DNA of 64,000 nucleotides from Octopus vulgaris (taxonomy: Eukaryota). Both the position numbers and the translations under genes were made by a program. Shown here piece after piece: positions 5,661-56,987 of this stretch. The stretch covers positions 91,326,001 to 91,390,000 of the forward strand of contig OX597822.1 of assembly GCA_951406725.2 (NCBI GenBank). Reading direction: 5' to 3'. Below the pieces are notes generated by a model, which saw only the letters and a program-made list of their open reading frames with translations, ran no database searches and was not told the origin of the DNA. Positions within the stretch are counted from its first letter, which is position 1; each line of letters opens with the position of its first letter.

Positions 5661-5767
5661 ACATTATTTACATTATTTACATTTGACAGATATTTGTCCT
5701 CATCTTGTTTGCTGTTAATTAAGTAAATAATGTACATAATTCCTCATATCTTAAATATAGAAATGTA
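5661..5767. mobile_element. Short copy of the 29679-29999 element (inverted end plus tail only)
   Basis: acattatttacatttgacagatatttgtcctcatcttgtttg matches the left arm. gtaaataatgtacataattcctcatatcttaaatatagaaatgta matches the end of the right arm and the tail. Confidence 0.8.
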
Positions 5768-6799
5768 TTAATAAAATAAAAGTTAAATGAACTGCAATTC
5801 TAGTTTCTTTAATGAAATAAAATCTTCCAGAACTATTTTGAATACTAAATTCGCAAAAATATAATTTGGAAATTTTAACTTGTTAAAATAATTTCAAAGT
5901 AAAGAGAAGTCACCTATTACTTACTTTCCTTTCAACACACACATCACAAATTTATATAACCTACACATATGACTTGGGTGATTTGGCTACTAGAGCAAGC
6001 TGAGGAAACAGGTGGAGATTGAATGAAGTGTGTTGGTGCTGGTAGTCATATTTTTGCTATTGTTTAGGTCAGCCCTGATTAAGCAGACCACTGATCAAAA
6101 GTAGTCTGGCCATGAATAATTGTGTGTGTGGTAATTTTCTTTACAGAAAAAGTATAATTTGGACTATATTATATAACGAGCAAAATGCCCACCCCCGTCC
6201 AATAGCTGGTACTGAGTTGTCAAACATTTAAACCAAATTTTCTCAAAACAACTTGTCCAACCGTCCCATTGGCCTCCCCTTTGAGAAACACTGATTTAAC
6301 CTAAATTTGAGACATCAGCAAAAGAAGAAATAAAGAGAGACTTTTTTCCTATTCCAAAGAAAAACGATTTTATTCACACAAATATGCAACCAAAGAGTTT
6401 AAAGTACCAGTAATTATAAGGCTGTTGACTGGGAGAACACAAACATGGTTTAAACAGTAAGCTTGGCAGGAAAGAAACGTGCCTTTAAAACAACAAAAAA
6501 TGGAAGGTGCAGTTGTGTACAGGTTGACGGAAGAAAAGCAGGACAAAAACGGCTTTATCGATTGCATTCTCACCTGGAATCGATTTTTGTAATTTTTTCA
6601 AGACTTATACACGCCCTGATACCATCGGTATCTACATATCAAATTTGAGTGCAATAGAATGGAGGATGCCCGAGATCTGAGAAGACACACACACAGACAG
6701 AACAGATTTTATATGAAAGATATGTCTTTTTTTTTTAAGACTGTAGTATGAAGTGAGAAACATTTGGCTATTTCTACCAAGTTCAACGATTTCAAAGAG

Positions 6800-29197: not shown

Positions 29198-29678
29198 TAT
29201 GTCTTTCCATCAACAGAATTCCAAAATACAATTTAACTTATAAAACATCCTAACTACATATATTTTGATCAACTGCTTAAAATGCGAAATATATTTGTAT
29301 TAATATGTTATTCCAAAATTTGAAAGAAGAACCAAATTACATTCTAAAAAGTATATCATGTGAAGAGGATCCCTTGTATGTCAATGTTTCATAGTGGGGT
29401 ACTATCATGTTGGTTAGAGAACATAGTTCACCATTCTTATTTTCATTTCTTTGTGTGTTCATTGCTAATACTAACAGAAAAGACAGTGTAACAATGGTCC
29501 CTTTTTGTGTGCCTAGGTTATAAAGAATTATTTTAAACTTTGTTAAAAGACTGTGACATCTCAAAATTTTTTTCTGTTTAGAAAATAAAATTCTAGGTAT
29601 CATGAGCCTCAATATAAAAAATACCTTGATAATCAATAGTGCTAGTAATTAAGAAACAAAATCAAACAATCACATAAA

Positions 29679-29999
29679 ACATTATTTACAATTGACGGAT
29701 ATTTATCCTCATTTTGTTTGATAGACATATGACGTAGTGGTTAAGAGTGTGGGTTACTAACCCCAAGATTTCGAGTTCAATTCCAAGCAGTGACCTGAAT
29801 GATAATAATAACAATAACAACAAAATTGAAAAATACCTTAGGAATGAGAACCCAGGTTCGAAATTTCCCCAAGACACCTGATGAAGGCTGGAAGGTATAT
29901 CAGCCAAAATGTTGTGTCAACAACAAACAAGATGAGGACAAATATCCGTCAATTGTAAATAATGTACATAATTCCTCATCTCTTACATATAGAACTGTA
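29679..29999 (+). mobile_element. Composite tRNA-head + hammerhead + PLE-type inverted-end element
   Basis: 42-bp inverted repeat 29679-29720 / 29924-29965 (40/42 match). tRNA-like A-box TGACGTAGTGG (29730-29740) and B-box GAGTTCAATTCC (29773-29784). Hammerhead motif at 29873-29918 and a 34-nt tail at 29966-29999 shared with 5661-5767. Confidence 0.75.
29873..29918 (+). ncRNA. Minimal type I hammerhead motif, CpG-decayed
   Basis: GACAC-CTGATGA-A-GGCTG(gaaggtatat)CAGCC-AAAAT-GTT-GTGTC. Stems I and II are intact. GAAAC reads AAAAT, and both changes are at CpG positions. Confidence 0.65.
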
Positions 30000-31142
30000 T
30001 AATTACATAAAATATGAAAGAAATAAAAAAAAACTTCTAAAAATCCAACAAGTCTAAATAATTGATTATAAAATGACTTAGGGAAATAGCATAAGTAGGC
30101 CATGGCTTGCATCCAGATAATGGGTGATGTACTGAATAATGTATACAAAACACACTGTAAATTAACTGAGAATTTTTGGCAAACAACATTCAGTACATCC
30201 TCTCCAAACTTTGTTTACACATAGCTATGGCTATACTGGAAGATTGCTGTGATTTTGCAGTCTATTTCAGCAAAGATGTTTCACTCCCTCTTCTATTTGA
30301 TAATTTCTATTAATTTGTACAATTTATCAACTTCATTTTTGTTGCATGCATCCTTTATTTGTAACAGTTTTAGCAGATCAACTGATGAATGTAAGCTACT
30401 CCATCTTGGATGTAACTAATATAAGAAGTTACGACACAAGAAATGTGTTTTTGTTTTTAGTTTCCCTGGAGAAAACCCTCAAATCTCAAATATTTTTTGG
30501 CAAGTCGTCAAATAATTGTAAGTTTATGAAAAATGCATCGTTGCAGCACAGCATCCGTTAATATGAAATAATGAGAATTTAGGAAGCTGACAGTAACTTG
30601 TAGCTTATCTAACCTTTAAACAACCCGCTTCACACACAATTACGTATTCCTTGCTTATGGTGTCTAAGAACATAGAGATATAGCATTTAAAGGCATTTAC
30701 AGTATTACAAATTTTTAATAGTTTACTATTTTGTAGCCTTTTAAGCTATTTGAAGAAACAGTTGGGATCAAAAATATAGTCTGCAGCCAGCAATCCTAAC
30801 TGAAAGGTCAGCATCGCTCATTATTTTTCTTGTACAGAAATATCACAAAAAAACAACCAAGCGGAAGGTTGGTAGTAAATTTGTATTAGTCTAGTTATAT
30901 GGCATGGTTAAAACAGATTGTTAAACATCCTATTTCTGAAATAAAGTCTGAATTTTGCCTGTAAGAAAATGAATGCTGTCATGGAATATATTTTTTCCCC
31001 TGAACATTTTTTGAATTTACAAATATTCAGTAAAAATATGATAAACTAATTTAAAATAGAATATAATATAAATAGAATATAATATAAATTCAAGTACACA
31101 CATGGCTAATTTTTGTGGAATTTGTATAGTTAATTAAATTAA

Positions 31143-33129: not shown

Positions 33130-33501
33130 CTAATTTTTCTAAATTTTTCTAAATTCAATTATTTAATCGTTACAGTTGAAAAGGTCTCAAAATGACCGAA
33201 ACCGGTACTGAAAGATTCACTAAAAAATCATCTTAGCATTTTCTATTTTTGACTTGTTTTTTCATATATATATATATAAATACGGATAAGATTGTTAATT
33301 TAAATATCGATCTTATTAAGTGGCCAGCATGGGAATAAAAACCTTCAAAGGTAATAATTATTATTAGAATTATAATTTAGGGTATCTAAGAGATACCTCC
33401 ATGCTGGAGAAAGCACTGTGGCTTTAAAGTCAAATTTTGGCTGCTATTTCCAGTGTGGAGGTATCTCTTAGATATCCTAAATTATAATTTTAATAATAAT
33501 T
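33130..33501 (+). mobile_element. Small PLE-type repeat with a decayed hammerhead and a 52-bp inverted repeat
   Basis: CAG-TTGAAAA-GGTC(tcaaaat)GACC-GAAAC-CG-GTA-CTG at 33173-33210. Inverted repeat 33356-33407 / 33450-33501 (48/52 match). Confidence 0.6.
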
Positions 33502-55910: not shown

Positions 55911-56987
55911 ATGCCAACAACAAATAAAGAATGTTTCACAAATGTACATGTCATCTTTGTGCAGGGGCCAGGATAATCTGTGTATTAATCCAATTTTAAT
56001 ATATGTGGATTGCAATGTGAAGAAATTTACTTTAATATATTTTGTATAGTAAGACATTATACTCCAAGAAAACTGGTGATGTTCTGCATCATTAAAAAAT
56101 ATACAAATATTTCAAACAATAGAACAAGAATTATATAATTTCTAACAATGTGTTTTTGTTTTTTATATGTTTTACTGAAATATCTAACAAAATTAATTAT
56201 AGAATACTGAATCAAGTATTGGTATGATTGATTAAATGTATATTGAAATATTATATCTGGACCCCCAAAGAGTTACCAGAATGAAATTGTAAAACAATGA
56301 GACAAGGCAAAGAAAAACTTTTCTGTATGAATCCCATGGAAAAATGGATGCTAACTTGAAAATAATTAAGTTGATAATTATAAATCCATTTGAACTCTGT
56401 ATTTCTTGCTTAAGATACCTTAATTCAATCAAAGATAAGTATATAATTTCTTGATATTTCTCAAAAGAAATCTTTAAAAAAATTTTTTAAATAAATAATA
56501 TTGGTAATCATTACATTTTAAAATCACATTGACAGACAATTAGATAATTGTACATGTAATTTTAATCATGAATTAATAAACTTCTTAAAATGTTGCAAAA
56601 CCTTAAAAATCATTTTTTTTCAAATCCAAACTAATACTGAATGAAGAAGATTCTAAGACAACTTCTCTAATATTAATGCTGGTATTGTTGTCACAATAAC
56701 TTACCCTACTCATTCCATTAGAGTAGTTGGTAACAGGAAGAAAACATTTTCTAACAGCTATGAAAACTTCACTTTCATAAGAAAGTAATTCCTTTAAAAT
56801 GTTACATATGCAATGTATTGTTATTTGCTTTATGTACCTATGTTTACTCCCTTGAAGATGTAGCTTTAATTGATTTGATGCCTTACTTTTCAAAGATTAA
56901 TGAATAAGGCCATTCCTTAACTGAATAGCACTTTTGGAATTATGACAATGAGACACTGATATACATATTACTTAAGATAATTTACAT

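Follow-up and report, generated by a model that had tools for sequence, protein, structure and literature searches.

The feature at 29679-29999 of the window (the whole 64,000-nucleotide stretch of Octopus vulgaris DNA analyzed here) is a short, decayed solo pLTR of an autonomous Penelope/Poseidon-type element. The element belongs to a known class (PLE pLTRs) and is new through the tRNA-derived head with which its pLTR opens. This captured head is likely an internal Pol III promoter giving short transcripts that would be copied in trans; it may drive the full-length RNA as well. On the usual view, autonomous retrotransposons are transcribed by Pol II, and a Pol III promoter marks their non-coding parasites (PMC10886601). 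A PLE whose own terminal repeat contains a tRNA promoter, having both a coding and a SINE-like form, would blur this line between Pol II and Pol III and would provide a route to the birth of a SINE without a separate fusion. Should Pol III make the full-length RNA, the element also poses a testable question on the translation of uncapped RNA.

The insertion in the window

The copy is flanked by an 11-bp TSD (29668-29678 on the left and 30001-30011 on the right), with one mismatch and 10 of the 11 positions identical. An earlier note on this DNA had stated that a TSD is not visible, which was wrong; the parts that it had listed (inverted arm, head, spacer, hammerhead, direct arm, and tail) were all confirmed where it had placed them. 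Next to the left TSD lies, on the minus strand, the inverted 5′ arm (29679-29720), in which pLTR positions 202-243 occur a second time, without the tail; over its 42 nt it is 95% identical to the direct arm (29924-29965). All other parts are on the plus strand. They begin with the final two bases of the PLE 3′ UTR (29721-29722; positions −2 and −1 by comparison with ORF-linked copies), followed by the tRNA-derived head (29723-29795) with an A box (29730-29740), which has one change in this copy, and a B box (29775-29783), by an (AAT/AAC)n spacer (29798-29824), the length of which is highly variable between copies, and by codons 1-52 of the PLE ORF (29844-29999, ATG at 29844), which in long copies run in frame into the RT/GIY-YIG protein. 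Within this ORF start is a minimal type I hammerhead with a decayed core (29873-29918, predicted to cut after 29913); the direct arm follows, and then a PLE tail of 34–35 nt (29966-30000), which is present on the direct copy only. The unit of head, spacer, hammerhead, and tail measures 280 nt and is free of T4 on the plus strand, as the earlier note had observed; the first T4 downstream of the head is at 30173. The absence of poly(A) was likewise seen correctly: across the family A6 is found near the 3′ end in 2 of 100 copies, the 3′ end being the PLE tail.

At 5663-5781 (plus strand) the window holds another insertion of this family, truncated further, which consists of an inverted arm (195-250) and a direct tail. 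Elsewhere in the window a weak match to Hammerhead_HH9 (33162-33226, plus strand; 22.9 bits, E 0.35), adjoined by an inverted repeat (33356-33501), may be the remnant of another PLE's pLTR. A degenerate U6 snRNA above the Rfam cut-off (55920-56015, minus strand) is likely a retropseudogene.

Abundance and spread of copies

Based on 6 insertions across 59 evenly spaced 10-kb stretches of the 2.8-Gb genome, the number of insertions is estimated at ~28,000 (95% range 10,000–62,000). A search at the DNA level yielded 6,054 candidates, of which 40 were scored, and a six-frame search for the body yielded 37,044, of which 150 were scored. From these 150 copies 100 were taken, selected solely by their ATG-to-tail stretch; 20 of them had been picked for long open frames, which favors long spacers. 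The copies are 88–93% identical to the column majority, and at the head short copies exceed long ones by ~5:1.

A search of protein databases with the 52 amino acids encoded in the short form returned solely three gene models of octopus in which pieces of the repeat are annotated as exons (70–100% identity). These models (P0001-P0003), among them a dystrobrevin beta isoform, contain pLTR pieces either by exonisation or as annotation noise. Repeated joints were also seen between the AAT spacer and an AAT microsatellite that belongs to another repeat family (L138, L158, L194/L482, L477 (5′ joints), L002, and L085), which suggests microhomology joining or targeting.

The autonomous element

In several copies the sequence upstream of the head translates as an RT thumb and a GIY-YIG C-terminus. 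A search with the RT piece gave 8,071 candidates. Among the 30 loci inspected the head directly follows the RT/GIY-YIG ORF in 20, separated from the stop codon by 29 nt; the other 10 end earlier, and an alternative 3′ end with another 3′ UTR was found in none of the 30. The N-terminal piece gave 216 candidates, and at at least 20 of the 30 loci inspected the tail runs in frame into the ORF, hammerhead and tail falling within its first 52 codons. The unit of ~2.6 kb, with ~820 codons, has the order head - AAT - ATG - hammerhead - tail - RT - GIY-YIG - stop - 29 nt - next head. Whole units were found at L284, L289, L291, L293, and L299, so that the autonomous PLE with the same hammerhead and tail, which the earlier note had proposed to look for, is at hand; an intact ORF was not seen among the copies examined. 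Eleven matches to the RT piece on C31 carry one identical 139-aa open frame, which suggests a copy amplified inside a larger repeat.

L166 contains a 569-aa frame with RT and C-terminal GIY-YIG. The match to RVT_1 (E 1.7e-6) is just short of the Pfam cut-off, and the endonuclease was assigned via its motif and alignment to homologs, of which 2,965 were found, part of them with PF01541 and those of one other organism 60–68% identical. Pfam gave zero matches with the last 70–84 aa (the endonuclease region). A PDB search gave no match. A Zn-finger linker between RT and EN, which marks Neptune and Nematis (PMC8557442), is absent in the translation of L166 and present in L061, and because it is absent the architecture is of the Penelope/Poseidon type. 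With a single ORF for RT and GIY-YIG, a tandem pLTR containing ORF start and hammerhead, a 30–40-nt tail, an inverted copy, and a TSD, the element is by its predicted protein and its structure an EN+ PLE of the Penelope/Poseidon type, the clade name being taken from the architecture rather than from a tree with named references.

Other PLEs were encountered in the same genome. A search with PF01541 for the partner of the short form led to Neptune-like PLEs, of which 0 of 30 loci were similar to the element, and these were rejected as the wrong partner. One Neptune-like family is young, 16 of 150 GIY-YIG matches sharing a 781-aa open frame. Its copy L061 (930-6172, on C16) has (TA)n flanks and direct pLTRs of 456 bp with 99.3% identity, and its 3′ UTR contains tandem repeats; a scan of L061 for CTGANGA...GAAA did not find a hammerhead.

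The tRNA-derived head and the edge of copies

The head is related to tRNA (z ~7 versus the tRNA-Asn, -Arg, and -Cys genes of its own genome, which score alike), and a pattern built from it finds tRNA-Asn clusters; ARAGORN and Rfam did not call it as a tRNA. In the family majority the A box TGGCGTAGTGG and the B box GTTCGATTC are canonical, which bears out the earlier note as to boxes of the Pol III type, and the tRNA stems are half broken. tRNA-Thr(AGT), tried as the source of the head, was rejected as weak (z ~3–5). Some 45 tRNA-Asn(GTT)-like genes are densely clustered on C20 (52.85–52.93 Mb), and C18 has smaller clusters.

Copies that reach the head tend to stop at its start. In 99 direct arms (L221 was excluded as a mapping artefact), with automatic end positions accurate to ~3 nt, 41 of the 52 copies reaching the head stop at −12 to +20 of the tRNA start (4.74% per nt), versus 13 of 65 within the head at 21-73 (0.42% per nt) and 1 of 11 at −78 to −13 (0.14% per nt); the stop rate is 0.70% per nt at 102-121 and 0.99% per nt in the spacer. 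The inverted arms have the same edge: 29 of 56 end at −12 to +20 and none between −10 and −591 (the call for L232 is an artefact). Exact 18-mer matches, counted genome-wide, number 5,660 inside the head versus 999 at −30 to −13, controls giving 0.

The 41 edge stops comprise 13 head-to-head joints, 11 ends joined to an arm further in, 16 without an inverted arm, and 1 that is ambiguous, and 14 arms retain 1–9 upstream bases (−1 to −9) though their partner is not a head. An imperfect palindrome (−11.6 kcal/mol) spans −14 to +10, whereas hammerhead stem II, which is similarly stable, yields no comparable stop (≤11% per 12 nt). The central variants of the head-to-head joints are of AC type in 4, of GT type in 4, and ambiguous in 5, and such mixed AC/GT joints would be expected if two cDNA ends annealed via the short palindrome rather than one end folding onto itself. 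Few ORF-linked 5′ pLTRs extend to the head: L207, L198, and L479 end where it begins. At least two (L209 and L219) continue into upstream ORF sequence, so that some templates started further upstream, which speaks against the promoter reading. The edge fits an RNA that would start ~6–7 nt before tRNA +1, and 6–7 nt is a normal length for a pre-tRNA leader.

Integration signature and hammerhead

TSDs of 8–14 bp, the 34-nt tail, and the inverted 5′ arm are found family-wide, so that the use of PLE machinery, which the earlier note had read from arm and tail, is borne out. An inverted arm is present at the 5′ joint of 56 of 100 copies, ending at 238-251 in 40 of the 56 (and at 276 in one), and the 3′ ends of the direct arms are at 272-278 in all 100 copies, which were selected for an intact ATG-to-tail stretch. 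Where an inverted arm is present and the copy could be tested, 39 of 55 have TSD-like matches of at least 8 bp, versus 3% of mismatched pairs. Head-to-tail tandems are rare (L013, L130, L221). A 9-nt unit before the tail (pLTR 230-250), which at many loci is present in 1–3 copies, explains the two modes at which inverted arms end (244, 250). Work on PAc, the PLE of Anolis carolinensis, has described nicks in both strands, extension from a pair of internal RT start sites bounding the tail, and a hammerhead whose cleavage is dispensable in vitro (PMC11167929). The signature found here agrees with PAc and with Penelope of A. vaga (PMC11167929; PMC3846280), and the octopus family offers thousands of natural PLE integration records (two RT start sites, TSDs, head-to-head joints, and uncut template) that match the PAc model.

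The junction of head, spacer, and hammerhead is fixed across copies, and the majority of 307 aligned copies has an intact core (CTGATGA and GAAAC-GTT), both being outcomes that the earlier note had named as checks. The CpG decay that it had seen in the window copy is real: the two changes (G12>A, C15.2>U) are at CpG sites where the family majority is G in 79% and C in 71%, and stems I and II fold as claimed (−14.8 kcal/mol, z −1.8). The majority, which also has a palindromic stem III, possesses the CUGANGA/GAAA core, stems I and II, and NUH site of a minimal type I hammerhead, and the window copy does not; Rfam models did not detect the hammerhead of the element. Hammerhead-like motifs with other stems were seen in a random sample (L064, L066, L070, L072-L074) and probably represent further PLE families.

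Self-cleavage, which the earlier note had ascribed to the element, does not describe how copies are made. Copies running from head to tail require uncut RNA, and only 5 of 209 arms, taken irrespective of intactness, have their 5′ end at the cut site (191-193). In the bins at 188-211 the loss is ~10% per 12 nt versus 2–10% elsewhere, and 5′ ends number 40 of 206 at 188-211 versus 11 of 166 at 164-187. The genomic 5′ ends have no sharp peak and contain at most a weak trace of hammerhead cleavage. Because head-to-tail copies exist and few 5′ ends are at the cut site, the RNA of the element appears to be copied uncut, with copy ends that would not be set by the hammerhead.

Absence of T4 from the sense strand

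The column majority of the 2.6-kb sense unit contains zero TTTT in ORF, UTR, and pLTR, where ~5 are expected; in the columns of the coding region no T4 is present at ≥12%, and 66 kb of natural copies contain 29 scattered T4 versus 835 A4. For the 801 codons analyzed the significance varies with the null model: the T4 expected are 2.3 with a synonymous shuffle (P0 0.066, not significant), 2.7 with codon permutation (P0 0.047), 3.1 with the codon use of Neptune (P0 0.030), and 3.9 with a base shuffle (P0 0.016). Seventeen T-matched control ORFs, which are single natural copies and may carry decay, give an expectation of 5.3 (P0 0.005), and a shuffle over half of the ORF is not significant (P 0.16). 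The control ORFs, which are related ORFs of other organisms (58 of 79 metagenome loci, those with a frame of at least 300 aa), contain T4 in 57 of 58 cases, L306 being the sole exception, and A/B boxes after the ORF were found in 0 of the 58. The Neptune-like PLE of the same genome has 9 T4 in 2,343 nt. It should be noted that G4 is likewise absent from the element, as it is from 11 of 40 G-matched controls, and that low Phe is common to the element and its close homologs. The absence of T4 supports the Pol III reading and does not decide it.

L306 (2150-4560) is a related Penelope-type ORF of another organism and among the closest relatives. It is T4-free over ~2.1 kb and has a hammerhead and T4/T5 in its 3′ UTR; a tRNA head was not seen in it.

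Proposed mechanism and alternatives

If the head acts as a captured promoter, Pol III would start ~6–7 nt upstream of tRNA +1 in any pLTR. From a 3′ or solo pLTR a short RNA would run into the flank and end at a flanking T4, and from a 5′ pLTR a long RNA would cross the T4-free ORF. The PLE protein would bind the ORF-start region and nick both DNA strands, and reverse transcription would start within the RNA at two sites (278 and ~244-250); because RT starts internally at two sites, neither poly(A) nor a terminator would be needed. The two cDNAs would then be joined head to head. Some four-fifths of the cDNAs reaching the head would stem from short RNA and one-fifth from long RNA, and the family would act as a LINE and its own SINE in one. 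The SINE label of the earlier note does not apply to a pLTR of an autonomous PLE, and what may stand of it is a SINE-like behavior of short transcripts from the PLE's own pLTR.

A stronger version, in which the full 2.6-kb coding element is transcribed by Pol III, its strand is purged of T4, and the SINE-like short form is also spawned from every pLTR, is rather doubtful. An RNA that Pol III leaves uncapped serves poorly as mRNA. The source of the protein would be either such uncapped RNA or read-through by Pol II of the host. Ribozyme-linked cap-independent translation has been reported in viruses (PMC13725137), but in the octopus element the cut would be within the ORF. The unit is covered by four contig sets of presumed RNA type, from which start, strand, and level are not readable.

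The head could instead be passive, derived from a tRNA or SINE that long ago inserted into the 3′ UTR of an element made by Pol II, with short copies that are ordinary 5′-truncated PLE copies. We consider this the main alternative, less probable than a promoter but quite possible. The edge would then reflect the palindrome at −14 to +10 (by RT stall, snap-back, or annealing of cDNA ends) or a coincident Pol II start. Indeed, a hairpin is located precisely at the edge, the head-to-head junctions are of both the AC and the GT type, PLEs lacking a tRNA head can likewise have a palindrome at the pLTR start (PMC3846280), and the promoter of Penelope from D. virilis, described as the only PLE promoter tested, is LINE-like and internal (PMC2377424). 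L306 demonstrates that an ORF can be T4-free without a head, but in the octopus element UTR and pLTR are T4-free too, whereas the 3′ UTR of L306 is not. Moreover, 28 of the 41 edge ends are not palindromic joints, a comparably stable hairpin in the hammerhead does not stop copies, and the A and B boxes are canonical and at tRNA spacing, all of which argues for a promoter rather than a passive head.

The proposal of the earlier note, an independent non-autonomous SINE with a tRNA head, a borrowed PLE end, and master copies of its own, is largely refuted and thus very improbable. By the note's own account it falls if the head is simply part of an autonomous PLE's pLTR, and this is where the head belongs. 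The fixed order of head, spacer, and hammerhead and the ~5:1 excess of short copies would fit such a SINE; however, at each of the 76 head columns the majority base agrees between the 51 ORF-linked and the 138 short copies, no variant in the head is diagnostic of a short-copy subfamily, and no ORF in 30 loci ends in another 3′ UTR. Differences in the body between short and ORF-linked copies reflect selection for intact frames. There is hardly any probability left for a retrozyme of the Sm-alpha kind, in which tandem units are cut by the hammerhead to monomers or circles and then reverse-transcribed. The minimal type I hammerhead with its palindromic stem III in the majority, the mild excess of 5′ ends at 188-211, and the combination of Pol III and hammerhead known in Schistosoma (PMC6765202) are in its favor, but the copies are dispersed, joined head to tail or head to head rather than permuted at the cut site, where the few ends counted above are found, and they belong to an ORF-linked element in which tandems are rare.

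Relation to known elements

Neither a description of the family nor a PLE with a promoter of the tRNA or Pol III type was found in the literature searched; the short form may be filed as a SINE in Repbase, Dfam, or SINEBase or in the 1994 paper on octopus SINEs. A partial precedent would be SINE-derived 5′ ends in BovB-group LINEs, a point that our literature search did not confirm.

The closest relatives in organization are the Penelope/Poseidon PLEs PAc (PMC11167929) and Pen2/Pen3 of Adineta vaga (PMC3846280), which as described there have the same single ORF with RT and C-terminal GIY-YIG, a pLTR with ORF start and hammerhead, an optional 30–40-nt tail, an inverted 5′ copy, 8–14-bp TSDs, partial tandems, and a palindrome at the pLTR start. 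Unlike these, the octopus pLTR opens with an A/B-box head, most copies are the pLTR alone, and the sense strand is T4-free. A Pol III promoter derived from a small RNA is likewise present in the terminal repeat of the TRIMp3 elements Cassandra, Helenus, and Ajax, but these are non-autonomous LTR elements, the autonomous partners of which are argued to use Pol II and not to share the repeat (PMC10886601), whereas in octopus the autonomous PLE itself carries the head.

In Sm-alpha and Sj-alpha of Schistosoma, likewise short repeats, a type I hammerhead comes after a promoter of the Pol III type; in the description given they are tandem units that are cleaved, with no link to an ORF (PMC6765202), in contrast to the presumably uncut RNA and the coding PLE in octopus. 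Animal non-LTR retrozymes are similarly short, hammerhead-bearing, and pLTR-related and have been proposed to be mobilised by PLE proteins (PMC7229834; bioRxiv 10.64898/2026.07.22.740005). They form head-to-tail tandem arrays giving circular RNA, with no tRNA promoter in the accounts consulted, whereas the octopus copies are dispersed. With tRNA-derived SINEs (SINE2) the short form has in common the tRNA head with A and B boxes, the length of ~280 nt, tens of thousands of copies, and 5′ ends at the tRNA start. It differs from them in that it has neither a poly(A) or simple-repeat 3′ end nor a LINE partner nor any sequence apart from the autonomous element, and the head, which in a tRNA-SINE is absent from the autonomous partner, is here part of it.
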